Below, in pieces: positions 14,365 through 45,695 of a DNA stretch of 64,000 bases. Each line of letters opens with the position of its first letter. The first letter of the stretch is position 1. The translations under genes were made by a program, and so were the position numbers. A model generated the notes under the pieces. It was not told where the DNA came from. It was given only the letters and a program-made list of their open reading frames with translations, and made no database searches. Origin of the DNA: a virus (lineage: Duplodnaviria > Caudoviricetes); IMG/VR virus record IMGVR_UViG_3300021255_001460, positions 1-64,000 of that record; one strand, given 5' to 3'.

Positions 14365-14895
14365 ATGATTGAAAAGTTTTATACCACATAGGAGATTCAG
14401 CATCTTCCGAATGGCAACATACAGTGCCTTTACGATCACTATAGTGACATCCGTTATGCGCTGGCTAAGTATCATACAGTTTGTGCGGCGGCTGTGCTGA
14501 GTGAACTTGATTATCATGCGGCTTATCTGCTGGACGATACTGGTGTTTATCGTGATGAAACTGGTCGTATGTACCGTGAAATCTATGACCGCCGCGAAGA
14601 TCCGATGGCTGATCTGTATGTGACCATTGAGAACCAGATGCGGCCTGATGGAAGTAAGGGTCTGCTCTATGAATCCTTCGACAATCTTCCTCAAGGTCAG
14701 CAGAAGTACCACTACATTTGTGCGGCGGCTTCTGTGAGTGGTATTCCTTACCATGCCGCCTTCCTGATCCGCGAAGATGGAGTGTTTGTTGATCAGGCTA
14801 TTTGGGATCGTAGAGTTGATCCTGATATTCAGCCTGAACCAGAACCCGAAGAAGAAACTCCTGCCGAACAGGTTGATGAAGGCGGTGAGGCGTAA
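14365..14895 (+). CDS. hypothetical late protein, 176 aa, in-frame TAG at codon 9 (14389)
   Basis: MIEKFYTT*EIQHLPNG... in frame with ORF 14494; internal duplication (YHTVCAAAVLS / YHYICAAASVS). Confidence 0.75.
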
Positions 14896-15251
14896 TGGCA
14901 ACAGGTACAGTTAAGAGTCTTGTTTCTACGTTAAACAGCAAGTTAGCCTTAAAAACTGGAACGTTTGAGTACAGTGCCGGGTTCTCTTCTGATACGTTTA
15001 GGATTCTCAAATCTGGGAACGTTGTTACTATCTGTTTCGACAGTTTAAAAATTCCGGCTACTGGCACAAATCTTGTTGGCTATATCCCGTCTGGGTTCAG
15101 GCCACCTGTGACAATCGTTGGGACGGCTTTTACAAGAAACGGGAACGCTTTTCTCTTCCTGATTGGGGTGGATGGAAATCTTAAGCTTTACGATGTGCAA
15201 AGCACAAGTCAGGTATTTTATGGTAATGCTTCATATTGCATTTCTGATTAA
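14895..15251 (+). CDS. expressed variable fibre-tip/receptor-binding module A (12-aa leader plus shufflon cassette)
   Basis: MATGTVKSLVST-LNSK...; KSGNVVTI, IPSGFRP beta-rich tip motifs; site at 14929. Confidence 0.7.
   Translation: MATGTVKSLVSTLNSKLALKTGTFEYSAGFSSDTFRILKSGNVVTICFDSLKIPATGTNLVGYIPSGFRPPVTIVGTAFTRNGNAFLFLIGVDGNLKLYDVQSTSQVFYGNASYCISD
14929..14941 (+). repeat. shufflon recombination site A (CGTTAAACAGCAA)
   Basis: Identical 13-mer at 14929(+), 15539(-), 44899(+), 45631(-), always in the frame encoding LNS. Confidence 0.8.
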
Positions 15252-15264
15252 GTAACTTGCTGAT

Positions 15265-15549
15265 TTATCCAGTGATGAACGCGATATTAACATTCCCGGC
15301 TTTACTCATTGTAACATTGCCATTGCTTCGCACCAAGCAATATCCATCAATGATAGCACTGTCATTTAGTAATGGAAAATACATGTTTGCGCTAGGTCTG
15401 TACGGAATATAAAACTGCACCGAACCTGAGACAGTGGTTGCACTCACAGATCCGCAGACAAGGTTACCCATCTTTTTAAGCATGTGCTCTATGGTATTGC
15501 CATCCATGACGTTGATCTGCACACGTTCCGGCGTAAGATTGCTGTTTAA
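15265..15549 (-). other. silent inverted cassette B (LNSNLTPERVQINVMDG...ITG*)
   Basis: Open frame starts at site B and has no upstream RBS/ATG of its own. Confidence 0.75.
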
Positions 15550-15551
15550 CG
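15539..15551 (-). repeat. shufflon recombination site B
   Basis: TTGCTGTTTAACG on +, the inverted copy of site A. Confidence 0.8.
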
Positions 15552-15572
15552 AAATACCAAGGAGAAGAAAAC

Positions 15573-15890
15573 ATGAAACGAATACTGTTATTTATCCTCA
15601 TTTTGATCATGCTGTTTTGCATGGTCGGGTGTTCAAGTATAGATTACGGAACAGTTAAGGATAAATCGTTTTCTCCTGCACATCGAACATATCGACCGAT
15701 GATGATCCATATGGGCAAAGGTATGCATGTTATTCCACGTTGGGTGAGCCATAAAGCATCATGGAAAATTTTTGTCGAGAATAACGAAGGCAGTGAATGG
15801 TGGACTGTTACGGAAGAATATTACAATGCTGTAAATGTCGGAGACTTTGTTGATAGACGACCAAACAATCAAAAGAGGAGTACAAAATGA
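15573..15890 (+). CDS. putative lipoprotein
   Basis: MKR + hydrophobic stretch + MVGC lipobox; AAGGAG RBS. Confidence 0.65.
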   Translation: MKRILLFILILIMLFCMVGCSSIDYGTVKDKSFSPAHRTYRPMMIHMGKGMHVIPRWVSHKASWKIFVENNEGSEWWTVTEEYYNAVNVGDFVDRRPNNQKRSTK

Positions 15891-16027
15891 AAACATTGTA
15901 TGACTTCACAAATGCATTTGAAGAACTTATGGATGAAGCACTGAACGAACTGTCTCCTGAATCATTCGAGCGGTTCAAAGATTCTGTATCAATGATCCTT
16001 GATGATTATGAAGGATCGGATGATTAA
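15887..16027 (+). CDS. small acidic hypothetical protein (46 aa)
   Basis: GAGGAG RBS; ATGA overlap. Confidence 0.5.
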   Translation: MKTLYDFTNAFEELMDEALNELSPESFERFKDSVSMILDDYEGSDD

Positions 16028-16034
16028 CAGATGA

Positions 16035-16340
16035 TAAGGATGCAAGTCCTTAACATACTATGGGAAGCGGCACGACTGAAACCCAGCTTTACCTTTCTAC
16101 GCATTGCCTCCTTAACAATGCTTTCAACTGTCGTGCTTCCCTTTGAAACCGCACAGCGCAACACGGCAGACCACCTTGATACAATCGTCTTGTCAACGCA
16201 TCGAGGTCAGGGTAATGAGAGTCTGCAAGCTTCCTGCACTCCGAGGTTGTAAAATCCTGACAGGTTGACATCTGAAGGGGTTTAGTTTGACGGAGATATC
16301 TCATGTACAAGTGTACAAGGAGTTCCCGGATACGTCATTA
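16035..16340 (+). ncRNA. unassigned structured non-coding region
   Basis: Stems 16035-52, 16062-76/16130-41 with inner 16101-21, 16166-71/16221-26 with 16173-80/16200-07; no credible CDS; strand inferred. Confidence 0.45.
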
Positions 16341-16361
16341 AATTATGGCGCTTCCTGAAAC

Positions 16362-16458
16362 GATTGGTGACGGAATAGGTAGACGCGCCGGGTGTCGCAA
16401 GCGAGGCGATGGTATTGCGATAGTCCATCATGTAAGGTGCAAATCCTTACCCAGTTCA
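16362..16458 (+). ncRNA. tRNA-like RNA 1 (D and T arms, no canonical anticodon arm)
   Basis: GATTGG/CCAGTT acceptor, TGACGGAATAGGTAGACGC D-arm, GTAAGG-TGCAAAT-CCTTAC T-arm. Confidence 0.65.
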
Positions 16459-16500
16459 TTTCAGCAGTTTTCTCAAGAAACTGCGAAAATAATCAAAGAT

Positions 16501-16532
16501 GGTACACCTTTCGTGGGTGTACCTTCGTTTTT
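16501..16532 (+). terminator. intrinsic terminator-like hairpin
   Basis: GGTACACCT/GGGTGTACC stem followed by a T run. Confidence 0.55.
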
Positions 16533-16562
16533 ATCTGTAGGTTTAAGGAAGAAGGTGTTGGT

Positions 16563-18416
16563 TTGCAAATCGAGGAAGCTGTGAGACAGTTTGCGGATGA
16601 TTACTTGGGAGAGTACCGCCTGAAAGAAAGACATGGGGTTACCGAGTATGTTGCAAAAGTCTGCCCGGTTTGTAAAGCGGCACACGATCCTTGGACATTC
16701 TCCATCAATGCGCTTGGGCTGGCAAACTGCAAGCGCGGCAACTGTGGATTCAAGGGTACGTACAACCAACTCATGAAAGAACTTGGTTTGCCCACCATTA
16801 AAACATCAGATTGGAACAGGTCGAATAAAATGAATCAGAGTGTTACAAAGGTCAAGTACGATTTGCCGCACACAACTTTACTTCCATTGACTGACCAGTG
16901 TAGAGATTACCTTCATCTGCGCGGCTTCTCAGACATTACCATTGATCACTTCCCCATCAACAGCGACCCCGAAGGTAACATTGTCTTCAGCTTTATGCGC
17001 GGTGGAATAAACGTGTTCCAAAAGTTCCGTAGGCCGCAGAAATATGTACACGGAGACTCAAAGCCCAAAGAGTGGCAGGTCAAGAATACCGAGCCAATTC
17101 TGTGGAACATAGATCAGCTTGATGTAACACAGCCAATCTACATCACAGAAGGCCAGATGGATTGCCTTGCCCTGTACGAAGCTGGGTTTGACAATGTGAC
17201 CTCAGTTCCATGCGGTTGCGACAATGACCAGTGGATTGAAAACTGCTGGGATTTCCTGAACACGGTTGACACATTCGTGATTGTGGGCGACTCAGATGCT
17301 CCGGGTCAGAAGATGGTGGACGTTCTCAGGAAGCGCCTCTCCATGTGCAAGGTCAAGTATGTGCCGCTTGGTGAATATCCGCTCAGAGATGACGGCACAC
17401 TGATGAAGGATGCCAACGAAGTTTTTGTGCGGCGTGGTGCTGATGCGCTGGTTGAGATGGTTGAGTCCGCAGTAGATGACCAGATCAATGGCCTGATCAA
17501 TATCTCGCACGTTGAGCCAACTGATCCGACCACAATCCATCGTATCCACACTGGATTCATCTCTATCGACAGAAGCTTGGGTGGCCTTGTTGATGGCGGC
17601 TTGACCATTATTTGCGGCGACGCTGGATCTGGTAAGTCAACCATCAGCAATACATTAATTCTCTCCGCAATCAATGAGGGTGCGAAGGTAACAGTGTATA
17701 GCGGCGAACTCGACAAGGAACAGTTCCAGTGGTGGCTATACCTTCAGGCGGCTGGCGATGACTGGGTTGGTCTGAAGTACGACAGCTTCAACGAAATGAA
17801 TGTGCCGTACATAACTCGCGAGTGCCAAGACCGCATCTCAGCTTTCCTCGACAACAAACTCTACCTGTACGACAACGAGTCCGACACAAGCGACGACCTG
17901 ATGAACAATGTTATTTCTTTGTTCGAGGCATCAGCGCGGCGCTACGGCACTTCGATCTTTCTGGTTGACAACGTGATGAGCATGTCGGCTGGTATGGAAG
18001 ATGACGAGTATTCCGCACAGGCAAAGATTGTGAACGCACTCAAGCGGTTCGCACTCAGGTACAAGGTTCATGTGATCATTGTGGCTCATCTCCGCAAACA
18101 CTTTGGCGACGCATCCACAGTTTCGCTCCATGACATCAGCGGCAACAGTGTGCTGAACAAGACCGCTACCAACGCCATCTATGTTGCGGATCAGAAACTG
18201 AGGATTCTCAAGAACAGAGGGAGCGGCGTGAAGTGCGTTGTGCCACTGGTTTACTGCCGCGCATCAAGGCGAGTGTACGAAAGCCAGTATGGTGACCGCC
18301 TGAAACTGTGCTGGAATACAACAGGACTGAAGCCGCCAAACCCAAGAGCCGACTCCATGCCTGAGTATCAGATCCTCTTGCCGCCCGAACAGATACCGCA
18401 GACAAGTCCATTTTAA
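16563..18416 (+). CDS. bifunctional primase-helicase (Zn finger, TOPRIM, SF4 helicase; T7 gp4-like)
   Basis: CPVC...CKRGNC, ITEGQMD, DSD, KDANE, Walker A GDAGSGKS, LVDN, VAHLRK; probable TTG start at 16563. Confidence 0.9.
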   Translation: MQIEEAVRQFADDYLGEYRLKERHGVTEYVAKVCPVCKAAHDPWTFSINALGLANCKRGNCGFKGTYNQLMKELGLPTIKTSDWNRSNKMNQSVTKVKYDLPHTTLLPLTDQCRDYLHLRGFSDITIDHFPINSDPEGNIVFSFMRGGINVFQKFRRPQKYVHGDSKPKEWQVKNTEPILWNIDQLDVTQPIYITEGQMDCLALYEAGFDNVTSVPCGCDNDQWIENCWDFLNTVDTFVIVGDSDAPGQKMVDVLRKRLSMCKVKYVPLGEYPLRDDGTLMKDANEVFVRRGADALVEMVESAVDDQINGLINISHVEPTDPTTIHRIHTGFISIDRSLGGLVDGGLTIICGDAGSGKSTISNTLILSAINEGAKVTVYSGELDKEQFQWWLYLQAAGDDWVGLKYDSFNEMNVPYITRECQDRISAFLDNKLYLYDNESDTSDDLMNNVISLFEASARRYGTSIFLVDNVMSMSAGMEDDEYSAQAKIVNALKRFALRYKVHVIIVAHLRKHFGDASTVSLHDISGNSVLNKTATNAIYVADQKLRILKNRGSGVKCVVPLVYCRASRRVYESQYGDRLKLCWNTTGLKPPNPRADSMPEYQILLPPEQIPQTSPF

Positions 18417-18444
18417 GCTGAACGAAAGGAATAAGGTATAAGGT

Positions 18445-19254
18445 ATGTGCATGTTGCCAGAAGGAATTAAGTTTTCGTTCTCATCCCTGTCTGCCTACGA
18501 TCATTGCCCCATGAGTTTCAAGCTGTCCAAAATCGATCACCTTCATGACGACGGCAACTTCTTTTCCCAGTACGGTTCTTTCGGACACAAGCTGTTCGAG
18601 CAGTATGAGAAGGGCGAGATCCCTTTGATTGCGCTGGGGCAAGAGTACGCTGATCGGTTTGAGGCTGAGGTTACCGCAGACCCGCCACCATTTCCCCGTG
18701 GCCTGTGGCAAAAATACTATGATGCTGGGCAGGAGTTCTTCGACAACTTCAATGGGTTCGACGAACACTACGAAATCCTTGAGATTGAGCAAAAGTTTGA
18801 AATCAATATCGGCGGCTATCCTTTTGTGGGCATTGCCGATTTAATAGTCCGCAACACACTGACTGGCGGTATCGAAGTCATCGATCACAAGTCCAAGTCA
18901 AAGAACAGCATGAAGAAAGAGATTGATGTGTACCGCAAACAGCTTTACACATATGCCATGTATGTTCATGAGAAGTACGGCGAGTGGCCTACCATGTTGC
19001 GGTTTAACATGTACAAGGAAAACTACTGGATTGACGAGCCGTTTGATATAAAGATGGTCAAGGAAACTGAAGACTGGGTAGTTGCCACGATAGACCGCAT
19101 CAAGGCCGACACAGAATGGTTCATCCACGAAGATGAATATTTCTGTTGTAATATCTGCGGCTTCTTTATGCAATGCCCAGCCCACAACATCATCATCGAA
19201 CGTCGCCACGAGCGCATGTTGGCGAAGGAACAGGCACAGAGGGGTGACGAGTAG
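18445..19254 (+). CDS. PD-(D/E)XK nuclease, Cas4/RecB-like
   Basis: SFSSLSAYDHCP, IEQKF, GIADLI, IDHKS, QLYTY, C-terminal CCxxCxxxxxC. Confidence 0.85.
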   Translation: MCMLPEGIKFSFSSLSAYDHCPMSFKLSKIDHLHDDGNFFSQYGSFGHKLFEQYEKGEIPLIALGQEYADRFEAEVTADPPPFPRGLWQKYYDAGQEFFDNFNGFDEHYEILEIEQKFEINIGGYPFVGIADLIVRNTLTGGIEVIDHKSKSKNSMKKEIDVYRKQLYTYAMYVHEKYGEWPTMLRFNMYKENYWIDEPFDIKMVKETEDWVVATIDRIKADTEWFIHEDEYFCCNICGFFMQCPAHNIIIERRHERMLAKEQAQRGDE

Positions 19255-19255
19255 T

Positions 19256-22200
19256 ATGAGCATGGTGGTCTATCATCTACACAGTGACAACTCAATGTTC
19301 GACTGTGCCACCGACTTTGCCGACTATATCGCGTTAGCCAAAGAGCAAGGCATGACCGCGATTGGCTCAAGCGAACACGGCATCCATCGTGACTGGGTTC
19401 GCAAGAAGCTACTGTGCGAAGAGGCTGGGCTGAAGTTTCTGAATGGTGTAGAGATCTACCTTACTGAGTCGCTGGAAGAAAAGGTGCGCGACAACTATCA
19501 CACCATATTGATCGCCAAGAACCATGATGGTCTGGTGGAACTCAATCGTGCGGTCTACAACTCCACAAAGCCCGACCACATGTTCTACAACAACCGCCTG
19601 ACTTTTGATGAGTTTCTGGCGCTGTCCGACAATATCATTAAGATCAGCGCCTGTATAGCTTCGCCACTCTGCCGTTTGCCGCATGATCATCCTTACTACA
19701 ACAGGTTGGTCGAGGCGTATGACTTCCTTGAGATTCAGCATCACAATATTCCGCTCCAGAAAGAATATAACTCTTGGCTGTGGCAACTGTCCTGCGAGTA
19801 TGGCAAGCCACTGATTGCTGGCACTGACACACATGCCGCCACCAAGTACAAGGCCGATTGCCGCCAGATTATGCTTGACTACAAGAAGCAAAGATATGAC
19901 GGCGAGGATGAGATGGATCTGACTTGGATTACTGAGCAGGATCTTGTGGCGGCTTATGCACGGCAAGGTGTTTTGCCACAAGCAGTTTATCTGGAAGCAA
20001 TCGCAAACACGAACAAGCTGGCTGACATGGTGGAAGATGAGCCGCTGGATAGGTCGATCAAGTATCCTATTCTGTACGGTTCTCGAGAAAAGGATGAAGA
20101 GGTTTTTGAAAACCGCATCCAAGAAATGTTTGCGGCAAAGTTGCGTGACGGTGTGATTCCGATGAGCCAGAAGGAAGCATATGAGAAAGCAATTGATGAA
20201 GAGTTGAGCGTATTCAAGAAGCTACATATGTGCGGCTTTATGCTTTCCCAGAGCGAACTGGTCAAATGGTGTCATGATAATGATATTCCGACAGGGCCAT
20301 CCCGTGGTTCTGTTGGCGGCTCGAGGATTGCATACATTACCGACATCATCGATATGAATCCCGAGACACTCAATACAATCTTCTCACGCTTCTGTAATGA
20401 ATCTCGTGTAGAGGTGGGTGGACATATCGCTCACCTAATAAAAATCTGTTGAACTGCTGGAACACCCTGAGAGCCTTGATACCAAAACAGAACGATGAAA
20501 TATGCGTAGATGGCAATGGTTTGAAAAGTTCAAGGATTGGGCAATCAGCAACCAAGCCCCGAACAGGGGAAGGCTCAACGACCATTCCGTAAGGAAGTAC
20601 ACCGTAAGCGCGGTGGAAGTGGCAGACGCTATATAAGCGAAGATATGGTCTGTTCTCTACAGAAAGTGTAGAGAGGTTAATCCTTGCACGGAGTAGCGAT
20701 CCGAGCAAAACATTCAAAGATATTGATACCGATATTATTACCGAAGACCGCCCGAAGATATTTGAATACATCGCCAGCCGTTTTGGTAGCGAGTTCACAG
20801 CACGGGTTGGTTCATATGGTACGTACTCAGATAAGAATATCATCATCGATGTTGGTGCGGCACTTGCAAACAACTGGTTGCGCGATCACGGTGAAGATGA
20901 CCGCGAACTCAGTCCTTATCCGCTGAAACGTGTTGACCGCATCAAGAAAGAATACGACTCAGATCCTGATGCGACTGCAAAGAAATATCCCGACATCTTC
21001 TACTACTACGAAGGCTTGAAGAATGTCCGCAAGCAACAAGGAGTCCACCCGGCTGGTATGGTGATTTCGCCAGTTAATCTGATCGACGAATACGGCGTGA
21101 TGTACAAAGATGGCGAGAACGTTCTGATTCACGACATGGATGCGGTTCATGATGCTGGTTTGGTCAAGTACGATTTTCTTGGACTGAAGACCATTGCCGT
21201 TATTCGTGACACATGTAAGCTTGCTGGCATCCCCTATCCACGCTATCACACAATGGACTGGGATGACCAGAAGGTATGGAAGGATATCTGCGATTTTCCA
21301 CAGGCTATCTTCCAGATGGAATCTCAGTTTGCGGCAGACGCGATCAAAACATTCCAAGCCAAGAGCATTGCTGACATGACTCTGGTGACCGCATGTATTC
21401 GGCCTTCTGGTGAATCATACCGTGATAAGGTCTTTGCACATATTGCAAATAAGAATCCGACCAAAGAAATGGATAACCTTTTTGCGAACAGTCTTGGTTA
21501 TCTGGTTTATCAGGAACAGATCATTGAAGCCCTCATCAAATTGTGCGGTTTCAGTGGAAGTGAAGCCGACACGGTTCGCCGCGATATTGCAAAGAAAAAA
21601 GAAGACAAAGTTGCCGCCGACGTTATTAAGATCCGTGAAGGATATTGCGCTCGTTCTGATAAGCCGCGAGAAGTTGCTGAGAAAGAGTGCGAGGAAATGC
21701 TTCAGGTTATCAATGATGCAAGTGGGTATAGCTTTGGATACAATCATGCCGCTGGATATAGTTTGATCGGCTACATCTGTGGCTGGCTTCGGTACTACTA
21801 CCCCACTGAATTTGTTGCGGCTTGGATGAACAACGCTGATGGTAAGGATGATCTCGCCACAGGTACTGCTTTGATGCGGCGCTACAATGTCCGAGTTATG
21901 CCGCCAAAGTTTGGTGTCAGTAAGAGCGGATTTGGTTGCGACCACGAAAAGCATGAGTGCGCTATTGGCCTGATCTCTATCGATGGCTTCGGCTCAACAC
22001 AGGGCGATGCGCTTTACAAGCTGGCACATGAGCATGAGTACAAATCATTTGTGGATCTGCTCGACGACATATTTGAAACCCGCGCACTGAATGCCACACA
22101 GGTTCAGCAGTTGATCGACATCGACTTCTTTTCAATGTTTGGCAATATTAACGAACTGACAAGCATCTACGAGTTCTACAACATGCTGGGTAACCGCAAA

Positions 22201-22701
22201 ACATTGAACAAGGAGAAGTACGCAAATACACCGATTCAGTGCATTATCCAGCAAAACGCCAACGGCTTAACTGCAAAGGGTGCTGAAGCCAAGGTATGGA
22301 CGATAACCAACCGCCACCAACTCCTGCTCGACATTGAAGAGTATGTTCGCCGCCAGAAGCTGGATGATCTGTCAACCATAAGCAAGGCAATAGTTTACGC
22401 AAGGATTATGAACGGCGAGTGTCCGGTCACAGGCCGCGAAGAAGACCGCCCCAAGCTTTATGTCAAATCGGTGTATCCGGTCAAGCGCAAGAAGGACAAC
22501 AAACAGTTTGGTGTGGCGATCACAACCAGATCCTTGGGCAGTGGTATTGAGTCGCGCTTCACGATCTTTATGAATGTGTACAACCAAGATCCGGTCGAGG
22601 CTGGCGACTTTGTTTTTGTGCGGCGCTATTCGGCTGACACAAAGGGCGACACAACTTACTTTACTTTGTGGGAGTACTATAAGTTATATCCCGGAGATTA
22701 A
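19256..22701 (+). CDS. dnaE: DNA polymerase III alpha subunit, split by a group I intron (exons 19256-20419 and 20719-22701, 1048 aa)
   Basis: PHP HLHSD, GPSRGSVGGS, FSRFCNESRVEVG|DIDTD, HPAG, KYDFLG, YQEQ, YSFGYNHA. Confidence 0.92.
20420..20718 (+). ncRNA. group I intron without ORF (299 nt) in dnaE
   Basis: P1 AGGTGGGT/GCTCACCT with U.G at 20419; P 20452-66, Q AATCAGCA 20543, R TCAACGACC 20575, S GAAGATATGGTCT 20639; P9 hairpin; removal restores VEVGDIDTD. Confidence 0.88.
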
Positions 22702-22720
22702 CAGATAAGGAGCAAGGCAT

Positions 22721-23143
22721 ATGGAAACAGAAAAGCTGAAACCCGGTTTGGTGCATAAGAAAAACTATTATAAGGGCGAGATTCCACCGCCCAACTTTAT
22801 CCATATCGGCAACAACAATTACATCAGCGCCGATATGGTTTGTATGGTGCTGGAGATGAAAGGCAGGAGCGCAACTGCAATGCGTGAGGCCGCAGAACGA
22901 CATGGCTTGCTGTGTGATGCGCGACGAGGTGGACGCAATGGTTCATACATCGTGCTGACAGATGGACATGTCGTGATCTCAAGCTTCTCGCCCAAGAATG
23001 TGGCTACACGGTTGAATCTTGGCATACTTGGCCCAGAGATTAGCGAAGAGCCAGTGGTTGTTGAGGAGCGGCCTATGGCTGAAGTACCGGAAGGAGTGTA
23101 CATGTTCAACAATGATGACGGCGACGGAGAAAATGATGTATGA
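22721..23143 (+). CDS. RemA/DUF370-like protein
   Basis: HIGNNNYISAD...AAERHGLLCDARRGGRNGSYIVLTDGHVVISSFSPKNVATRL matches the RemA pattern as I recall it. Confidence 0.75.
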   Translation: METEKLKPGLVHKKNYYKGEIPPPNFIHIGNNNYISADMVCMVLEMKGRSATAMREAAERHGLLCDARRGGRNGSYIVLTDGHVVISSFSPKNVATRLNLGILGPEISEEPVVVEERPMAEVPEGVYMFNNDDGDGENDV

Positions 23144-23372
23144 CAGTCTTCGCCACACGCTGACGGATCTGATGAATGAATTTGAATACGGGTTAACTGA
23201 TCCATCTGATCCGCACTATCAACGCACACTGGACAACATTGAATATGCCGCCAGCTTGCTTGATGCCTACACATTCGACAGGGCGCTGAGTGAATTCCTG
23301 ACCCTGTTGATGCACGACATCGAACAGCTTCGCGCACAAATAAAACAAAAGGAAGAAGAGGAAAAGGTATGA
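23133..23372 (+). CDS. hypothetical protein
   Basis: GGAGA RBS; packed in operon. Confidence 0.6.
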   Translation: MMYDSLRHTLTDLMNEFEYGLTDPSDPHYQRTLDNIEYAASLLDAYTFDRALSEFLTLLMHDIEQLRAQIKQKEEEEKV

Positions 23373-24088: not shown

Positions 24089-24098
24089 AGGAGCAAAT

Positions 24099-24545: not shown

Positions 24546-24558
24546 AAGGAGGAAAGGC

Positions 24559-28491: not shown

Positions 28492-28499
28492 TCTCATTA

Positions 28500-37016: not shown

Positions 37017-37289
37017 ATGACGAAAGCAAATGCAGAGCAGTGGCGATCTGGTGAGGCTGGCGCTTGTGGCCTGTGCCGCCGCGAAAAGTATTGCCACAAA
37101 CCTTGCCTGAATAACAAGGAGAGACTTGCCACCATTGCTGTCAGAATGCTCGAACAACTGGGCAAAGATCCCGAGTTTGATGATAAGGTTGCTGGAGTGC
37201 TTACGGTTGCGAACCAGCTTGCTAAGAGTGCCATTATGATCAAAAACATGAACCTTGGTCTGGACGAGGAGCAGAGCGATGAAGTTTAA
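37017..37289 (+). CDS. hypothetical protein
   Basis: GAGGAG RBS; Cys cluster. Confidence 0.55.
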   Translation: MTKANAEQWRSGEAGACGLCRREKYCHKPCLNNKERLATIAVRMLEQLGKDPEFDDKVAGVLTVANQLAKSAIMIKNMNLGLDEEQSDEV

Positions 37290-38022
37290 GGATTTCGACA
37301 AACAGATGCGGCAGTACGAACTAGTCCGCGACACGTTTATCCCTATGGGCGGCTACACAGTTGTGCGGCTTGATGGACGTAGTTTCTCGAAGTTAACCAA
37401 CCGCAAAGGATATGCCAAGCCGTTCGATGATCGGTTCAAAGATGCGATGTCACAGGTTGCCGCAGAACTCATGAAGTGCGGCTTTGATGTGCGGTTCGTC
37501 TACGTGCAGTCTGACGAGATCAATATCTTGTTCGACGATGAATGTACCACATTCAACCGCAAGGAGCGCAAGTGGTTGTCGATACTGGCTGGGGTCGCCT
37601 CTTCTGTGATGTCGCACTGTATCAACTGCATGGCGGTATTTGATGCTCGTGTGATCTGGTTGCCCGACGAAGAAGCTTGCAACCACTATTTTGCTTGGCG
37701 GCAAGGAGATAGTGAGCGCAACTGTCTGAACAGTTACTGCTACTGGACATTGATCAACACTGGCATGAGCAAGTACAAGGCCGCATCAAAGCTGGATCAC
37801 ATGAAGTACGACGATAAGCTGGATCTGCTCACACAGTACGGTATTAACTATGATGCCGTTCCCATCTGGCACAAGTATGGATACGGGTTCTATTGGAAGC
37901 AGTACGAGAAGACTGGTCGCAATGGCGAGAAAGTTACCCGGATGCGAGTGTGGCGAGATGAGGAGTTGCCGCACTTCAAATTTACATTGGAGACTATAAA
38001 ACAAAATGAGTCACACGATTGA
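37279..38022 (+). CDS. tRNA(His) guanylyltransferase Thg1-like 3'-5' nucleotidyltransferase
   Basis: VVRLDGRSFSKLT, YVQSDEINIL, FDARV, YFAWRQ.D..RN. Confidence 0.9.
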   Translation: MKFKDFDKQMRQYELVRDTFIPMGGYTVVRLDGRSFSKLTNRKGYAKPFDDRFKDAMSQVAAELMKCGFDVRFVYVQSDEINILFDDECTTFNRKERKWLSILAGVASSVMSHCINCMAVFDARVIWLPDEEACNHYFAWRQGDSERNCLNSYCYWTLINTGMSKYKAASKLDHMKYDDKLDLLTQYGINYDAVPIWHKYGYGFYWKQYEKTGRNGEKVTRMRVWRDEELPHFKFTLETIKQNESHD

Positions 38023-39157
38023 AGATCTTAATACACTGGTAGCACTGCCCCACCCACATAAAGTAGCACTCACGAAGGAACGCATCAAGGAGTGGTATGA
38101 TCACTGGGACGGCAACGTTTATGTTTTATTTTCTGGCGGCAAGGACAGCACGGTTCTGCTCCACATTGTTCGCCAGATGTACCCGGAAGTAAAGGCCGTC
38201 TTCAGCAACACAGGTCTTGAATATCCTGAGACTGTTAAGTTTGTGAAGTCTTTCGATAACGTAGACCTTGTTCGCCCCAAGATGACGTTTGCCGACGTAA
38301 TCACAACCTATGGTTATCCCATCATCAACAAGGAAACAGCAGAGACAATCCATTATGCACGGTCACGAGATCCGCGCCAAGAAGCAACTGCCAGACGCAA
38401 ACGGGAAGAACTTCTTGGTCAGCGGATTTACGTTGACCCAAGTGGGAATGATCCGCGCATCAATTACAACAAGCGACCATTTGCCGATACCGCAGAATCA
38501 AAGGGGCGGCTCAGTAAATATAACAAGGACAAGTGGTTGCCGCTCTGTATGGAAGCGCCATTCAAGATCTCCCACTACTGTTGCGAGATCATGAAGAAGT
38601 CGCCAATGGGTATCTATGACCGCCGAAGTGGTTTGTATCCTATGGTTGGCACAATGACAGAAGAAAGTAGATTGCGGCGAGGGGCATGGCTCAGACACGG
38701 ATGCAATGTGTACGAAGCGAAACATCCGGTTAGCCAGCCTCTTTCTTTCTGGACAGCGCAGGACATCCTGTACTACATCAAGGAAAACAATCTGCCCATC
38801 TGCTCATTGTACGGCGACATTGAGGTTAACCAGTTTGGCGAACTCTACACCACTGGTTCATCCCGGCTGGGTTGCTCTGCCTGTCTCTTCACACTACACC
38901 GCGAAACCAAGGGCGACACAAGATTCCAAGTTATGAAGCAAACCCATCCAAAGCTTTATGAGTTCTGTATGGGCGGCGGTCAGTGGATCGATAATCCCGA
39001 CTATGATCCCACCTATGACGGCACACCGGATGATATTGGCTGGGTTTATTGGAATCCACCAAAGCTGTGGATACCGTCAAAGGAAGGGCTTGGAATGAAG
39101 TTTGTCCTTGATTTCGTGAACGACATTTATGGAAAACGGTTTTGCCGCTATGAATGA
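38006..39157 (+). CDS. PAPS reductase family protein
   Basis: FSGGKDS PP-loop; CCEIMKK; ESRLRR; RLGCSAC. Confidence 0.85.
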   Translation: MSHTIEDLNTLVALPHPHKVALTKERIKEWYDHWDGNVYVLFSGGKDSTVLLHIVRQMYPEVKAVFSNTGLEYPETVKFVKSFDNVDLVRPKMTFADVITTYGYPIINKETAETIHYARSRDPRQEATARRKREELLGQRIYVDPSGNDPRINYNKRPFADTAESKGRLSKYNKDKWLPLCMEAPFKISHYCCEIMKKSPMGIYDRRSGLYPMVGTMTEESRLRRGAWLRHGCNVYEAKHPVSQPLSFWTAQDILYYIKENNLPICSLYGDIEVNQFGELYTTGSSRLGCSACLFTLHRETKGDTRFQVMKQTHPKLYEFCMGGGQWIDNPDYDPTYDGTPDDIGWVYWNPPKLWIPSKEGLGMKFVLDFVNDIYGKRFCRYE

Positions 39158-39392
39158 AAATGAACTTGAGATTCTCCCCTGTTACAAATGTGGTTCGCAC
39201 AACGTGATGCTCAACACATGTGCGTCCACCATTATGTGTGTCGAGTGTCTGGCAAAGAGTCCACCTTTCAGACTGCCAGATGGGCGACGCAAGAAGATGT
39301 CAAAAGAAACTGTGATTAAGGCTTGGAATAGCGTACCACGAAAAGCTATTCCGCGAAAAAGTGAGGATAATACCAATGGACATCAGACATGA
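39150..39392 (+). CDS. Lar-like Zn-ribbon protein
   Basis: LPCYKCG...CVEC...AWN. Confidence 0.55.
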   Translation: MNENELEILPCYKCGSHNVMLNTCASTIMCVECLAKSPPFRLPDGRRKKMSKETVIKAWNSVPRKAIPRKSEDNTNGHQT

Positions 39393-40476
39393 ATTTCCGT
39401 TCTTTGAGAAAACCGATGTGACCTATCTCGACTCTGCCGCCACAACTCAGAAGCCATATAAAGTGATAGACAGCATCGTACAATCCTATTCAGAATTCAA
39501 CGCCAATCCGGGAAGGGGTTCGCACACCCTTTCCCTTTTTGCTACCTCTCGTTACGAAAAGGCGAGAGAACATGTTGCGGCCTTCTTCGGTTGCGATCCT
39601 GACGAACTGATCTTTACGTCGGGCGCTACTGAATCGCTCAACATTATTGCCAAAAATCTCTCCCCACTTACCCGCCACGTAAACTTCGCCACCGCACCAT
39701 TTGACCACCACTCTTGCATTCTCCCTTGGTTCTATTGCTACGACAGCGAAGACATGACAACCAAACCGTTCAAGTCTGTGGATGTTTATACAGTGGTGTC
39801 CAACGTAATTGGCGATGTGAAACTGCCGCATCAAGAACATACAGAGGATAGAGTTGTTGTTGCGGATCTGACCCAAGCTGTCGCCCACATGCCGATCAAC
39901 CTGCACGAGATGAGCATTGATTGCGCGGCCTTCTCTGCCCACAAGATGTATGGCCCAATGGGAGTTGGTTGCCTATACATCAAACGGGATCTCCAGAAGT
40001 ATTTTATCAACATTAACTATGGTGGCGGCATGGTAGAGGATCTGGTGGACGAAGAGTTCAGGTTCAAATCTGGGCCGCAAAAATTTGAAGCTGGCACAAG
40101 AGATGTTGCCGGGGTAGTCGCCCTTTCTGCGGCTTGTTCATTCCTCGAGCAGTATGGCTGGATAAACATCATGGCTCACGAGAAAGACCTGATGGATCAT
40201 CTGCTCTACGAGTTTGCACAGGATGACCGCATCGAAATTTATGGTCACAACCAGCAGAGTCTCGTGTCGTTCAATGTGCGCGGCTTTCACTCATCTTATG
40301 TTTCCGACCACCTTGATGGCTGGAACATTGCAATCCGGGCTGGGCATATGTGTGCGCTGAACACCATGAGGGCGCTCGACATCGACTCTTGTTGCCGTGT
40401 AAGTCTGGGCATCTACAACACACACGAAGATATTGATTATCTCGCAAGATCACTGAAGGAGTTGAAAGAAGAATGA
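39376..40476 (+). CDS. sufS: cysteine desulfurase (SufS/Csd-like, PLP class V)
   Basis: YLDSAATTQKP, FTSGATES, FSAHKMYGP, EAGT, RAGHMCA. Confidence 0.9.
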   Translation: MDIRHEFPFFEKTDVTYLDSAATTQKPYKVIDSIVQSYSEFNANPGRGSHTLSLFATSRYEKAREHVAAFFGCDPDELIFTSGATESLNIIAKNLSPLTRHVNFATAPFDHHSCILPWFYCYDSEDMTTKPFKSVDVYTVVSNVIGDVKLPHQEHTEDRVVVADLTQAVAHMPINLHEMSIDCAAFSAHKMYGPMGVGCLYIKRDLQKYFININYGGGMVEDLVDEEFRFKSGPQKFEAGTRDVAGVVALSAACSFLEQYGWINIMAHEKDLMDHLLYEFAQDDRIEIYGHNQQSLVSFNVRGFHSSYVSDHLDGWNIAIRAGHMCALNTMRALDIDSCCRVSLGIYNTHEDIDYLARSLKELKEE

Positions 40477-41519
40477 GACATCTCGCAAGTATACAGAAGA
40501 TCTGGAAGATTGAACCTATCGAAGGCGCTGACCGCATCGAACTGATCCATGTGTGTGGCTGGCAGTGTGTGGCAAATAAAGGCCAGTTCAAGCCTATGGA
40601 CAACGCCATCTATTTTGAAATTGATAGCTTCCTGCCGATCCGACCTGAGTTTGAATTCCTGCGCTCATCCAGCTACAAAAAGACCGACATTATGGGCGAA
40701 GGCTTCAGACTCCGCACCATGAGGTTCAAGGGGCAGATCTCTCAGGGTCTTGTCCTGCCGCTGAGTATGTTCCCGGAGATTGATCCCGGCACAGAAGTTG
40801 GCGTGGATGTAAGTCAGGCACTGGGGGTGAAGAAGTGGGAAGTCGAAGAACGTGCAACAACGCAAGGCACAATTATTGGCACACTGCCGCCATCAATCCC
40901 AACAACTGATGAATCGAGAGTGCAAGAATGTCCTGAGCTAATCCAAGACTTCGGCAACCTTGAATTCTATATCTCCAGCAAGATGGATGGCACATCCTGC
41001 TCTGTCGCCATTGATGAGGATGGCTGGCATGTGTGCGGTCACCACTATGAGTACGCCGATGATGGCAAGTCCTCATTCTACAACTTCATCAATAATCTTG
41101 GTCTGCGCGAAAAGATGGAAAAGTATGTTAAGGAGATGGGCTATAAATCGCTCGTGATCCAAGGCGAGTTCTGCGCTCCCGGCATTCAGAAGAATCCGCT
41201 GAAACTAATAAAACCTGAGTGGTATGTGTTCACAATCCGTGTTGATAACAAGCGTGTCGGACTCATCCCCATGCAAACCATCTGTCACGAACTTGGGCTG
41301 ACCCATGTGCCAATCGAAGAAGTCGCCAACAATCTGAGCGCCCACTACCCAACCGTTGAAGCGCTCCTCGCCCGTGCTGAACAGGGTACATATCCGAGCG
41401 GCAGTATGAAAGAGGGCATCGTGATCCGACCAACCGAGCCAGTCTATTGTCCGCGCATCAGTGCTTCCCTGTCCATGAAAGTTGTCAGCAATAAGTATCT
41501 GTTGAAGAAAGGTGAATAA
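40473..41519 (+). CDS. ATP-dependent RNA ligase (Rnl2/DRB0094-like)
   Basis: LASIQKI..IEPIEGADRIE, SKMDGTS (KxDG), QGE, EGIV, KVVS. Confidence 0.88.
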   Translation: MRHLASIQKIWKIEPIEGADRIELIHVCGWQCVANKGQFKPMDNAIYFEIDSFLPIRPEFEFLRSSSYKKTDIMGEGFRLRTMRFKGQISQGLVLPLSMFPEIDPGTEVGVDVSQALGVKKWEVEERATTQGTIIGTLPPSIPTTDESRVQECPELIQDFGNLEFYISSKMDGTSCSVAIDEDGWHVCGHHYEYADDGKSSFYNFINNLGLREKMEKYVKEMGYKSLVIQGEFCAPGIQKNPLKLIKPEWYVFTIRVDNKRVGLIPMQTICHELGLTHVPIEEVANNLSAHYPTVEALLARAEQGTYPSGSMKEGIVIRPTEPVYCPRISASLSMKVVSNKYLLKKGE

Positions 41520-41520
41520 G

Positions 41521-42019
41521 ATGCCAAAGAAACCGGAAGACATTGAACTGGAAGAGCAGAATATCTTTTGCCGCATACCAAAGAACACATTCAAAATGAA
41601 AATTGAATGTGTCGTCATTATTGGCGGCAAAGAGCAGAAGGTACACAAAGAATTAATGCTCGACGAGATAAATAAAGCACGGGAAGATTTTCTTGAGTAT
41701 GTCGAAGATGGCGACGACTATGATGCCCGCTATGAACTAACAGATGAAGGCCGCAAACTATTGGAGCAGATGCGAAATGATAAACTCTTGTGATTGGTGT
41801 GGTAACCAGCATCTCAAGGTGAATATTTTAACCGACTACATTACGGTGGACGAAAAGCATTATGTGTGCGGCAGAGGAGTGGTGTATTGCCCGATCTGTG
41901 GAGCGACCTATACCAAGTGCGACGCATACACCCAACTGTTCGACCCGATCCTGCCCAGCATGATAACCGACACAACGCATCGTTTACGTGTTGGAATTCT
42001 CAATGAATTAACTGCATAA
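41521..42019 (+). other. two small hypothetical CDS (41521-41793, about 41777-42019)
   Basis: ORF track; packed downstream of the ligase. Confidence 0.5.
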
Positions 42020-42024
42020 AACAC

Positions 42025-42057
42025 CCCCATCAGCCGCCTCTCGTGTGGTTGGTGGGG
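42025..42057 (+). terminator. 13-bp hairpin between the operon end and integrase 2
   Basis: CCCCATCAGCCGC/GTGGTTGGTGGGG with G.U pairs; T-rich tail. Confidence 0.5.
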
Positions 42058-42090
42058 ATTTACTTTACCTTTTTCTGGAGGCGATTTGAC

Positions 42091-43257
42091 ATGCAAAAAC
42101 TCAATGATTATACTGGGGTCGAGATGAACCTTGAAAACTGCAAAGCGGATACAGACAAGGGGGCTATCTCTATGGCGACAGCGAGAATCCGGTTACCCAT
42201 TACACTACCAATTGTCGGCAAAGTATGGATGACAGGCCGCACATATCAGGAAGCGGTGACAAACCTCATGGCGAAGTATGCGTGGCTTTATCCAGACAGC
42301 GCACCACCAGTAAGCGCAAAGTTCACAACGCCACAAACTCCCACAGTACGCGAGATGGGCGAACGATGGATTGCAGAAGATGTTGATCAGCGTGTGGGCG
42401 AAGCAAGACTGAGAAATTTGAGCCGCACACTATTGAACCATATCTATCCCATCATTGGAGAAACACATGTCGGGGATATTAAGTTCAGCGAGGCAAATCA
42501 GTTCTATATGCGTTTCAATGGATATGGCGTTGGTGTTGTCAGAAATATCAAAACCTGTATGAGAGGTATCTTTGACTTCTGTATTGATTGCGGCATAGTG
42601 GACGAGAATCCGTTCCGTAACGGACATTTGAAAGTCCGCAACGTTAAGCCTTGCGAGACACGCGAACCCATACCTGACCGCGATCTGATTGCCGCACTCA
42701 ATAAGTTAAACAACTTAAACTTCCAGCAACTTACCGCTTTTCTATTTGGCCTCTATGCTGGTCTTCGTTCTGGTGAGGTGTTCGCGCTACGATGGGAAGA
42801 TGTTCATCTTGAAACACCGGGCAAAGAATATGTGTCGATTAGCAAAACAACAGCCTATGACAGGAATCTTCATACGATCATAAAGTCACCGAAGACAAAG
42901 GCTGGTGTGCGAAATGTGCCACTTAACGCGACAATTGTTGAACATTTGAAAAAAGTTGACCCCTTAAACCGCTCTGGTTATATCCTACACAAGAGGGGCA
43001 ATACAGAATGTTATATAGCGAAGAACAGTGCCACACGTACATGTAAAATTGCGCTGTGTAATATTGGGCTTGGTCAGTACACATTCCACCAGTTGCGGCA
43101 CACTTTTGCGACCAAGATGCAACCGCACACAGATGTCAAAACCTTGCAGTACCTTATGGGGCATAGCAGTGCGTCAATCACGTTGAACACCTATGCCGCA
43201 CTCGATGTGACCCAGTTGGAGAAGACAAGGGATGTACAATTCGTGTTTGCCAGTTGA
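42091..43257 (+). CDS. tyrosine integrase 2 (prophage-type, with N-terminal extension)
   Basis: GLRSGE, KTKAGVRNVP, HQLRH, MGH, LNTY; GGAGG RBS. Confidence 0.9.
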   Translation: MQKLNDYTGVEMNLENCKADTDKGAISMATARIRLPITLPIVGKVWMTGRTYQEAVTNLMAKYAWLYPDSAPPVSAKFTTPQTPTVREMGERWIAEDVDQRVGEARLRNLSRTLLNHIYPIIGETHVGDIKFSEANQFYMRFNGYGVGVVRNIKTCMRGIFDFCIDCGIVDENPFRNGHLKVRNVKPCETREPIPDRDLIAALNKLNNLNFQQLTAFLFGLYAGLRSGEVFALRWEDVHLETPGKEYVSISKTTAYDRNLHTIIKSPKTKAGVRNVPLNATIVEHLKKVDPLNRSGYILHKRGNTECYIAKNSATRTCKIALCNIGLGQYTFHQLRHTFATKMQPHTDVKTLQYLMGHSSASITLNTYAALDVTQLEKTRDVQFVFAS

Positions 43258-43420
43258 CAACTTTGTTGATGGTATATGGTGGCGAGAATCGTTGCGGCAG
43301 TAAGAGTTTCGGCGATTGGTAATGTACATGGTTGTTGACACAAAACTGGCATTTATGCATATATGCATATTTTATTGCATAAATATACAGTGTCAAACAA
43401 AAGTCAAATAATGTCAACAA
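43253..43420. other. attP-like region
   Basis: TTGACA 43254 and 43335, 16-bp palindrome TATGCATATATGCATA 43354-69, (T/A)GTCAA at 43391, 43402, 43412; directly 3' of integrase 2. Confidence 0.4.
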
Positions 43421-43633
43421 AGAAAAAGAACCGTTACAAACAAATAGATTTGAAAAGCATTGATCTTTCTTCACTTTGACCTTCAAATCAAAATTGTTGC
43501 ACTTTTCTACTGAAACAGATACATGTATAAATATACATAATATTTCCACGTATCCGCTTTGCATATTTCAAGGGGAAGACTTGTTTCAGCCAATGATTTC
43601 GTTAGTTGAACCAAGTCCTGCTCAAACAAAAAT

Positions 43634-43675
43634 AAGCCCTGTTAACAAGATTTATTTCTCGTTAACAGGGCTTTT
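43634..43675. terminator. 13-bp inverted repeat, terminator-like
   Basis: AAGCCCTGTTAAC/GTTAACAGGGCTT followed by TT. Confidence 0.55.
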
Positions 43676-43711
43676 GTTATTGTCAAAGATCTTATGTTAT
43701 TATAAATCTTC

Positions 43712-43740
43712 TTGACAATCTGTGCGTTAAACTTTATCAT
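43712..43740 (+). promoter_or_regulatory. sigmaA-type promoter of recombinase 3
   Basis: TTGACA-N17-TATCAT; the spacer contains TGCGTTAAAC. Confidence 0.75.
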
Positions 43741-43871
43741 AAAAAGAGCGTCAGCGTGTACCAGACGCTTGCGCTCTTATATGGTGAAAGATGTGGGGTA
43801 AGCACATCCAACACAAAGGGAATTGTAACACATCCTTTCACCAATATCAATATATGGGAGGATGTGTTTTT

Positions 43872-44870
43872 ATGTCCAATAATTCCGAATCTTTCCGCAA
43901 CGAATTGGTAACACGGCTGTTTGACCAGATTCCGCAGGAGCAACTCAAGAACGTGATCTCAATCCTTGACGCAACCATGAGTAGCTACGACATTACTCGC
44001 AAGCCTGTCGAACTGATTCCCGCCAACGGTCTTCCAGAAGTTGTGAAGTATTTTCTCGCCAGTAAAGCGGTGGAAAATCTCAGCCGCAAAACGTTGAAGA
44101 TCTACAAACTTCGCCTTGAAGATTTCTTCGCGACGGTACGCAAACCTTTTCAGGATATCCGCGCTAATGATATCAGGCTATACTTGTACTACTACAAAGA
44201 CCAGCGTCACGCATCAGATGCTTACCTTGACGACATCCGCAGAATCCTCAACTCGTTCTTTTCTTGGCTCGTCAATAACGAGTACCTGCTCAGAAACCCT
44301 TGTGCCACCGTTGACCGCATCAAGTATCAAACAAAAGAAAGAGAACCTTTAACCGCATATGAACTTGAAGTCCTGAGATGGAACTGTAAGAATGTGCGCG
44401 AAAAGGCTCTGGTAGATTTTCTGTATTCAACTGGTGTTCGTGTCAGTGAGTGTCATGATATCAACCTGTCAGACATTGATTGGGATAGACGGTCGGTCAT
44501 TATTCAACACGGTAAAGGCAACAAGCGCAGGACTGTTTTCTTCAATGCTGAGTCAGAGTTGTCGTTAAGGAAATACTTGGAGTCGCGGTCTGACGATAAC
44601 GATGCGCTGTTCGTTTCTATTCGTAATCCGCACAACAGATTATGTGTACGGGCATTGGAAAGCATTATTACGAAGGTTGCCGCCCGTTGTAATATGCATG
44701 TGTTCCCGCACAAACTTCGCCACACATTCGCAACCAGTGGACTTCATGGCGGCATCTCTCTGGAGAAGCTTCAGGCATTGATGGGTCACGCGAAGCCTGA
44801 GACTACGCTGATCTATGCAAAGCTTGATAGTATGGATCTCCAGAGAGAACACCAAAGAGTCTATGCTTAA
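43872..44870 (+). CDS. XerC/D-like tyrosine recombinase 3, candidate shufflon invertase
   Basis: TGVRVSE, GKGNKRR, HKLRH, MGH, TLIY; stop lies 28 bp before site C. Confidence 0.9.
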   Translation: MSNNSESFRNELVTRLFDQIPQEQLKNVISILDATMSSYDITRKPVELIPANGLPEVVKYFLASKAVENLSRKTLKIYKLRLEDFFATVRKPFQDIRANDIRLYLYYYKDQRHASDAYLDDIRRILNSFFSWLVNNEYLLRNPCATVDRIKYQTKEREPLTAYELEVLRWNCKNVREKALVDFLYSTGVRVSECHDINLSDIDWDRRSVIIQHGKGNKRRTVFFNAESELSLRKYLESRSDDNDALFVSIRNPHNRLCVRALESIITKVAARCNMHVFPHKLRHTFATSGLHGGISLEKLQALMGHAKPETTLIYAKLDSMDLQREHQRVYA

Positions 44871-44898
44871 TTGCTTTATTTTTGGCGGTTTGGTCTTG

Positions 44899-44911
44899 CG
44901 TTAAACAGCAA
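44899..44911 (+). repeat. shufflon recombination site C
   Basis: CGTTAAACAGCAA. Confidence 0.8.
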
Positions 44912-45155
44912 TATTCAGACGATGCAAAACAACCAAATCAAATATATGGATATAACAGATACTACACCGGTAAATGTCAACTCGAAAAGTGGGCAAGTTA
45001 TAACCATCAATAATTTTATCGGTTACGCCGCACTAACTAACGGGGTATTGCCCATGCCTTATACGAACAGCGGTGTCCAATACATTAAACTTGTAAACTA
45101 CAACGACCTATCCGCTTTTTCCGGGTCGGCAACTATACGAGTTTGGTATAGATAA
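44901..45155 (+). other. silent cassette C (LNSNIQTMQNNQ...RVWYR*)
   Basis: Frame starts at site C with no convincing RBS/start upstream. Confidence 0.72.
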
Positions 45156-45162
45156 TCAGCAA

Positions 45163-45269
45163 TTAAGCGGGTGAGGATTTGCACCTCACAACTGTCGCTC
45201 CATTGGGGTCTTATCGACAATTTCCCCCAGCGCTTTCGGAGTGCGTCTACCTATTCCGCCACCGCTCAA
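45163..45269 (-). ncRNA. tRNA-like RNA 2 (same family as 16362..16458)
   Basis: TTGAGCGG/CCGCTTAA acceptor, TGGCGGAATAGGTAGACGC D-arm, GTGAGG-TGCAAAT-CCTCAC T-arm. Confidence 0.68.
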
Positions 45270-45281
45270 TTCATTATACAA

Positions 45282-45695
45282 TCATTTAATCGCCAGAATC
45301 TTATACGGAATCATTTTTGTGTTGTCCGTTGCACTACCGCTAGTGGATGTATGAGCGTAACAATCCCCAAAGATAATGTTATTACTATCTGGACGAACCA
45401 CAACTTCCCGGGTAACGATGGCAAACGAACCAGCCGAATTCGACATTATCGCCAAATCACGCTCATACGAATACGGTACTAGATGACTTGTACCCAGTGT
45501 GGCACTCGTGTTGTAGCGGAAATAGATAACAACCATACGAACCCCGGTCATGTTCACAGTAAGCGTTTGACCCCCAAAGGACTGTGAGGGGCTTGGGTTC
45601 GTCCAAATTGTTTCAAAACGATTCGCAAGCTTGCTGTTTAACGCTTCAACATCTGCCGCCAATTTTGTCTGTGATCCTGCTACCTGATTAGCCAT
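45282..45695 (-). CDS. expressed variable fibre-tip/receptor-binding module D (17-aa leader plus cassette)
   Basis: AGGAGG RBS; MANQVAGSQTKLAADVEA-LNSK...IWTNPSPSQSF...IPYKILAIK. Confidence 0.75.
   Translation of the reverse strand: MANQVAGSQTKLAADVEALNSKLANRFETIWTNPSPSQSFGGQTLTVNMTGVRMVVIYFRYNTSATLGTSHLVPYSYERDLAIMSNSAGSFAIVTREVVVRPDSNNIIFGDCYAHTSTSGSATDNTKMIPYKILAIK
45631..45643 (-). repeat. shufflon recombination site D
   Basis: TTGCTGTTTAACG on +. Confidence 0.8.

Follow-up and report, generated by a model that had tools for sequence, protein, structure and literature searches.

The host range of a phage is determined by its receptor-binding tips, and the DNA analyzed here raises the question of how two such tips, encoded 30 kb apart in one genome, are exchanged and whether they form a single system. 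The window (64,000 nucleotides, positions 1 to 64,000 of the IMG/VR record IMGVR_UViG_3300021255_001460) covers the opening 64 kb of a 90,106-bp siphovirus-type phage record of sheep rumen origin. It contains four copies of the 13-bp sequence CGTTAAACAGCAA, at 14929(+), 15539(-), 44899(+), and 45631(-), which form two inverted pairs: sites A and B at locus 1, and sites C and D at locus 2. We consider the more probable account to be that of two dispersed inversion switches of the Rin type, with one tyrosine recombinase (Rec3) serving both, locus 1 in trans, and with cassette pairs exchanged from a pool in the course of evolution.

Position scanning revealed that these are exactly the four copies of the whole 90,106-bp genome, with zero additional copies in the remaining 26 kb. 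No further copy with up to one mismatch was found in the 64-kb window, and at two mismatches the sole extra match was at 18997. Shuffled sequence gave a mean of 0.08 matches, and none of 100 shuffles reached four. Sequence identity among the sites ends at 13 bases, with differing flanks, and all four are read in the shared frame xCG-TTA-AAC-AGC-AAx, encoding (T/A/S)LNS(K/N). The scan, the shuffles, and the frame reading agree with the first-pass annotation, which had reported four identical sites in the LNS frame beyond chance expectation. Across at least 25 distinct contexts, the non-coding silent flanks included, the 13-mer was unchanged, and the residue preceding Leu was A, T, or S, its codon always being NCG; because the 13-mer is invariant even in non-coding flanks and the NCG codon is fixed, the constraint is one of DNA sequence rather than of protein sequence. 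An extended site with WTGKT at -9 to -5 fitted the four sites here and was rejected since it failed in several relatives; the defined site was therefore limited to the 13-mer. Silent sites with the variant sequence CGTAAAACAGCAA, which puts a TAA stop at the Leu position of the silent copies, were observed in three relatives: G005 (IMGVR_UViG_3300021255_000873; 6326-7828), G008, and L064. The first of these carries one expressed site and two silent sites of this type.

At each locus, one core follows a short leader that begins with a start codon and has a purine-rich ribosome-binding site (RBS) upstream (sites A and D), and the other opens a frame in which a start codon is absent (sites B and C). 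Counted from Leu, the open frames after the cores extend for 106 (A), 94 (B), 84 (C), and 119 (D) codons. The RBSs and the start-less open frames confirm that each locus consists of one RBS-bearing short leader and one silent inverted cassette, as had been proposed.

All three of the window's recombinases are of the tyrosine type, with no serine recombinase among them: Rec1 (7728-8726), Rec2 (42043-43257), and Rec3, which share approximately 25% mutual identity over their catalytic parts. As previously noted, only locus 2 has an adjacent recombinase: Rec3 lies 28 bp from site C, none lies beside locus 1, and neither Rec1 nor Rec2, a lambda-type integrase located between the loci, adjoins a site. 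Rec3 contains the Pfam domains Phage_int_SAM_4 and Phage_integrase and no arm-binding domain, and its best NCBIfam matches were XerA, XerC, and XerD, all below cut-off. Its catalytic R, K, H, R, H, and Y residues were invariant among nine homologues. The exact core was present within approximately 3 kb of Rec3 homologues (58–74% identity) at seven of nine viral loci and near a homologue of 70–74% identity at both of two loci in metagenome-assembled genomes of uncultured Clostridia, and homologues of 45% identity or less had no core nearby. Complete relatives of 31–38 kb have a single locus, so that the two-locus layout is unusual within the clade.

Comparison with related strains revealed extensive cassette turnover bounded by the cores. 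Strains with 93–99% identical flanks carry more than 10 unrelated cassettes, and homology stops 0–9 nt from the cores. A sister strain (metagenome 3300031994), with flanks 94–97% identical to those of the window, carries leader D joined to a new cassette, E, at locus 2, with cassette D silent beside Rec3. Cassette D, 99.7% identical between the two strains, is accordingly leader-joined in the window strain and Rec3-flank-joined in the sister strain, and the leader D–E arrangement with silent D recurs in ENA and Logan assemblies. At locus 1 of the sister strain, leader A is followed by cassette I and the right (R) flank is joined to cassette J, the homology with the window ending at 14945 and 15539. 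In other strains, cassettes E, G, K, L, and N follow an identical leader D, the further locus-2 cassette sets being G/H, K, K'/O, L/M, and N, and the Rec3 flank is kept in all strains with the identical leader except the G/H strain. Leader A is fused to cassettes I and D' in other strains; the strain with leader A and D' carries F as the silent cassette and otherwise normal locus-1 flanks. The D'/F segment is 99% identical in two other assemblies, where it is preceded by a long fiber N-terminus that the window lacks, with the break at the core. This N-terminus, joined at the core to D'/F and the locus-1 right flank, was observed at L018:1-345 and L019:1-345, which share the same start base. 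Support for the first-pass assignment of the sites as tyrosine-recombinase inversion sites comes from the association of the core with the recombinase clade, the ends of homology at the cores, and the open frames of the silent cassettes.

A different type of joint was observed at L076:2330-2720 (ENA ERZ28612955 scaffold_111580), where silent cassette H lies head-to-head with M via the inner six core bases (TTGCTG). The homology of this contig to L023 ends mid-core, and the joint results from either aberrant recombination or faulty assembly.

The two loci were also connected with each other by their cassettes. The E–D segment from locus 2 of the sister strain aligned over its full length with the locus-1 D'–F segment of another strain (65.8% over 833 nt). 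Furthermore, two independent assemblies (L069 and L070, 98.8% alike) contain a leader-D variant followed by the D/C pair and its spacer, 96% identical to window positions 45695-44890 (827 nt), and in both the pair is joined at the core to the locus-1 lipoprotein flank, 91% identical to 15535-15864. This joint of C, core, and R flank is the junction expected from a B–C exchange. The samples of these two assemblies also hold a locus 2 with K'/O beside Rec3, and the D/C-locus and K'/O-locus contigs may share one genome. Since the same cassette pair occurs at both locus types, the comparison supports a pooled repertoire on which the two loci would draw over evolutionary time; on that scale, the proposal of one shared pool of tip cassettes holds. 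As a separate feature, the leader-D variant at L069:1837-1912 and L070:1106-1181 has a 7-residue insertion (KLAADV-AQLQTDVGS-LNS), giving a repeating heptad before the core.

Structure prediction was consistent with the view that the cassettes encode fiber tips. The AlphaFold2 (AF2) model of protein A, built from seven related cassettes (predicted local distance difference test score, pLDDT, 81.5), matched the receptor-binding heads of the lactococcal phages TP901-1 and p2 (E 2e-4, template modeling score 0.6, identity 21–24%). Its best fold match, TP901-1 BppL (163 aa, PDB 3ejc, 2f0c), is likewise small and stand-alone, a receptor-binding protein in which an N-terminal helix precedes a beta-sandwich head; it differs in having no inversion system and in sharing only 21–24% sequence identity with protein A. 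For protein D, the homologues in a representative library included many stand-alone proteins of 110–170 aa, and others in which the homologous part is the C-terminal domain of a longer protein. The AF2 model of protein D, built from 74 sequences (pLDDT 92), has a helix at residues 2-23 followed by a beta-sandwich, and its best fold matches were two phi812 baseplate proteins and a monocin side fiber (weak E of 1e-3, probability 1.0). Both expressed proteins are therefore predicted to comprise an N-terminal helix and a beta-sandwich head resembling receptor-binding heads, and these models, together with the PHROG minor tail match of cassette A, uphold the first-pass identification of the cassettes as fiber tips. 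The core falls within the predicted N-terminal helix, so that recombination would retain the first helix turns and exchange the head. The core recurs in distant phages, in the same frame, near the end of fiber proteins, some of 560–600 aa or more, with 42 to more than 599 residues upstream; the constant part of 12–18 residues here is at the short end of the range among relatives, and small stand-alone forms are common.

Table. Coordinates of the two loci and adjoining features in the window
Feature	Position	Strand	Observation
Fiber-like gene cluster ending in locus 1	11019..14895	+	Weak tail-fiber and head-fiber matches
Leader A (MATGTVKSLVS, then T straddling the core)	14895..14928	+	11 full codons; plausible RBS GGTGAGG upstream
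Site A, 13-bp core	14929..14941	+	Exact match
Cassette A, expressed head of 118-aa protein	14942..15251	+	PHROG minor tail protein C-terminus, E 7.5e-7
Cassette B, silent, without start codon	15265..15538	-	94 codons open from core
Site B, 13-bp core	15539..15551	-	Exact match; ERZ28612978 scaffold_8796 ends exactly at 15551
Right-flank gene, 105-aa protein, lipoprotein-type signal peptide (MKRILLFILILIMLFCMVGCSS)	15573..15890	+	Marks the R flank in relatives
Rec3, Xer-like tyrosine recombinase, likely invertase	43872..44870	+	Own promoter-like site 43712-43740
Site C, 13-bp core	44899..44911	+	28 bp past Rec3 stop codon
Cassette C, silent	44912..45155	+	84 codons open from core
Spacer between cassettes C and D, in invertible segment	45156..45281		Hairpin and tRNA-like stretch
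Cassette D, expressed head of 137-aa protein	45282..45630	-	411 homologues; AF2 model
Site D, 13-bp core	45631..45643	-	Exact match
Leader D (MANQVAGSQTKLAADVE, then A straddling the core)	45644..45695	-	17 full codons; plausible RBS AAGGAGG upstream

In the mechanism that we favor, each switch would comprise an RBS and a short leader encoding the start of an alpha-helix, a 13-bp crossover core located within this helix, an expressed beta-sandwich head, and a start-less head of opposite orientation behind an inverted core. Rec3 would pair the two inverted cores of a locus, flip 0.6–0.75 kb, and place the other head behind the leader; locus 1, which has no recombinase of its own, would be served in trans. 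With all four cores identical and in one frame, they would also be interchangeable joints, and whole cassette pairs would be replaced from the large pool of related phages and moved between loci over evolutionary time. Recombination between the loci within one genome would be chemically possible, and rare or selected against. The assignment of Rec3 as the enzyme acting in trans is one that we infer from its position and its clade's association with the core, and inversion is presumably still active in this strain. Contigs that stop exactly at core edges were found in four assemblies, and in GCA_001684375.1 a 670-bp contig seems to correspond to the invertible segment (14929 to 15598), as judged from gene positions only.

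Several observations weigh against this mechanism. No within-strain inversion isomer was found, and the pairs A/B, D/C, E/D, and D'/F each occurred in a single orientation (4–6 contigs each). Contig breaks at core edges can arise from mixed strains with different cassettes, and a contig break at 45690 matches exactly the point at which two leader variants diverge. The part of these small proteins that is constant and available for virion attachment is only 12–18 residues long. Finally, Rec1, 6 kb upstream of locus 1, could be the enzyme of that locus.

Whether the 30-kb interval between the loci itself inverts or is excised was assessed in assembled contigs and proteins. As the first-pass annotation had stated, the interval carries the replication module: it encodes a primase-helicase, a PD-(D/E)XK nuclease, a split DNA polymerase III alpha, ThyX, and dUTPase, together with an anaerobic ribonucleotide reductase, Thg1, PAPS reductase, an aminotransferase, an RNA ligase, and Rec2. 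The predicted inversion of approximately 30 kb by A–D or B–C recombination, and the predicted excision by A–C or B–D recombination, found no counterpart among the assembled contigs. All contigs crossing locus 1 (L013, L015, L042, L061, and L062) and all contigs crossing locus 2 (L024, L036, L074, L077, L078, and a 49-kb ENA contig) had the parental neighbors on both sides. No chimeric leader–cassette protein of this strain was present in a collection of 5.8 billion protein clusters; when protein A (at near and at longer lengths) and cassette B were used as queries, only the window's own forms were returned, with neither leader A joined to B nor leader D joined to A. The claim that cassettes swap between the loci accordingly stands for exchange between strains over evolutionary time, and a search for recombinant contigs or proteins of this strain, which would extend it to the individual genome, gave none.

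One assembly, ERZ28612978, contained contig ends at the cores that could be read differently. There, scaffold_7743 begins 55 nt before the end of scaffold_8796 at 15551; similarly, scaffold_516054 begins 55 nt before 44912 (core plus T), where scaffold_74093 ends. Read as a 55-mer graph, these ends hint that cassette B plus core has two exits, as does the Rec3 flank plus core plus T. Only B and C among the cassettes of the strain begin with T, and therefore one junction of Rec3 flank, core, and B would explain both branch points. We place little weight on this hint because the reciprocal junction is unbranched, the samples are multi-strain, and the break at 45690 comes from leader variants.

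These contig ends, the identity and common frame of all four cores, and the occurrence in a related strain of the C–core–R-flank junction, of the kind that a B–C exchange would produce, would fit a shufflon on the scale of the genome, in which Rec3 pairs A with D and B with C in the living population, the 30-kb module flips, and heads change leaders within a few generations. We consider this unlikely: all locus-spanning contigs have parental neighbors, the reciprocal junction in ERZ28612978 is unbranched, no chimeric protein was found, the samples contain mixed strains, and the strain with the C–R junction also differs upstream of its leader and so is not a simple isomer. We are equally doubtful that the four sites constitute one live network, in which Rec3 pairs across loci, the 30-kb module flips, any of the four heads can stand behind either leader, and co-infecting phages swap cassette pairs by recombinase-mediated cassette exchange. 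If this is true, the 13-bp core would act as a universal joint at which host-range modules are connected throughout a broad clade of Clostridia phages from the rumen and gut.

Somewhat less likely again is that the switches are fossils, the cores now having no role beyond that of hot spots or module boundaries where co-infecting phages undergo exchange, in a strain that no longer inverts. The single orientation of each pair and the massive cassette replacement between strains would be expected under such a loss, but Rec3 is intact and conserved with its own promoter-like site, the silent cassettes are complete open frames (84–157 codons) in every strain, and all four cores are perfect. Least probable of the three is that the loci are independent, with Rec1 (intact, Xer-like, and 99.7% conserved in the sister strain) serving locus 1 from its position 6 kb upstream, Rec3 serving locus 2, and the shared core reflecting common cassette descent, since Rec1 and Rec3 are only 25% identical over 130 residues and yet the cores are identical, the viral collection yielded no relative of Rec1, whereas the core accompanies the relatives of Rec3, and other phages carry a core pair with no recombinase in the surrounding DNA retrieved.

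The two dispersed Rin-type switches that we favor can be placed among several known systems. In the shufflon of plasmid R64, the tyrosine recombinase Rci acts at asymmetric sfx sites with a short conserved part and exchanges the pilV adhesin tip in frame, much as would occur here; the R64 system differs in belonging to a conjugative plasmid pilus, in forming one compact cluster, and in having 19-bp sfx sites. In the Gin, Cin, Pin, and Min systems (phages Mu, P1, e14, and p15B), inversion likewise swaps the C-terminal host-range part of a tail fiber. Those systems differ in using serine recombinases with an enhancer and Fis, in having a long constant part, and in carrying a chaperone gene in the invertible segment.

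The closest likeness was found with Rin, which was compared by its published description only. The Rin shufflon of Bifidobacterium breve and Bifidobacterium longum prophages has a phage tyrosine invertase of XerD-like build and 11-bp in-frame rix sites (Mavrich et al. 2018, PMC6109161). Its variable heads are TP901-1-like, and it includes a second inverted locus without a recombinase, for which supply in trans was suggested (PMC6109161); prophages of Eggerthella lenta are another reported source of Rin (PMC8778435). Like Rin, the system described here has a phage-encoded Xer-like tyrosine recombinase without an arm-binding domain, short asymmetric in-frame sites heading each cassette (rix, 11 bp; here, a 13-bp core), variable parts resembling the TP901-1 receptor-binding head, and a recombinase-less second inverted locus that is possibly served in trans. 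Unlike Rin, which forms one cluster, it has two loci 30 kb apart with identical sites; it also differs in having only two cassettes per locus, a different site sequence, a constant part of 12–18 residues in place of the full Rc gene, and a host in a rumen Clostridia lineage. On this comparison, the system is a Rin-type tyrosine-recombinase shufflon in a two-locus form. A precedent for one recombinase acting in trans at many distant inverted-repeat loci is Mpi of Bacteroides fragilis, as cited in PMC6109161; Mpi is a cellular serine recombinase that flips promoters, unlike the phage system. Distinctive here are the two loci with identical cores, the two cassettes at each, the very short constant parts, the conservation of the core across a broad recombinase clade, and cassette-pair replacement and inter-locus transfer at the cores.

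One 13-bp site and probably one enzyme thus serve two separate tip genes in one genome, and the identical site has been retained across phages whose recombinases are only 58–74% identical. The presence of more than 10 unrelated tips behind one unchanged leader in strains that are 93–99% identical suggests very fast site-directed exchange of host-range modules in the rumen. If active, the core and Rec3 would constitute a natural, portable head-swapping system, and would also serve as a marker by which such heads could be located in metagenomes.

The genomic settings of the two loci differ, and the first-pass statement that each locus ends a structural operon applied fully to only one of them. 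On the minus strand, locus 2 follows the genes for a 2,857-aa tape measure protein, Dit, a Tal-like protein, more tail proteins, an SH3 endolysin, and a holin, whose stop overlaps the start of the 137-aa D gene; it is the end of a late operon. Locus 1 closes a 4-kb fiber-like cluster that sits in the early region, after Rec1, an AAA_24 protein, SSB, and a sigma factor. The leader A ATG overlaps the stop of the gene at 14494-14895, which had no relatives in the viral collection. Downstream of locus 1 are a small lipoprotein-like gene and then replication genes. Against isolated-phage DNA, locus 1 gave only weak matches to Faecalibacterium phages, in one fiber gene, and locus 2 had no close DNA relatives among isolated phages. 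The 105-aa right-flank protein matched PHROGs of unknown function, and may be a surface or exclusion protein.

Further features were observed in and between the loci. A group I intron (Rfam RF00028, 60 bits, E 9e-13) is located at 20386-20673 (+), between the polymerase III alpha frames 19133-20452 and 20878-22701, and the gene therefore looks intron-split. The spacer between cassettes C and D contains, on the minus strand, a stretch resembling the D-arm and T-arm of a class II tRNA (GGCGGAAUAGGUAGACGC ... GUGAGGUGCAAAUCCUCAC); a tRNA was rejected, with no ARAGORN prediction, no Rfam match even at E<1, and a fold z-score of -0.9 for the 45156-45281 spacer. The spacer is 96% conserved together with the cassette pair in L069 and L070. 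At 44868-45155 (+), a TTG-started frame directly abuts the Rec3 TAA and continues in the same frame through site C into cassette C. This TTG-started, Rec3-adjacent form was called by gene finders (P0155 and P0156), and weak coupled translation of the "silent" cassette C head is conceivable.

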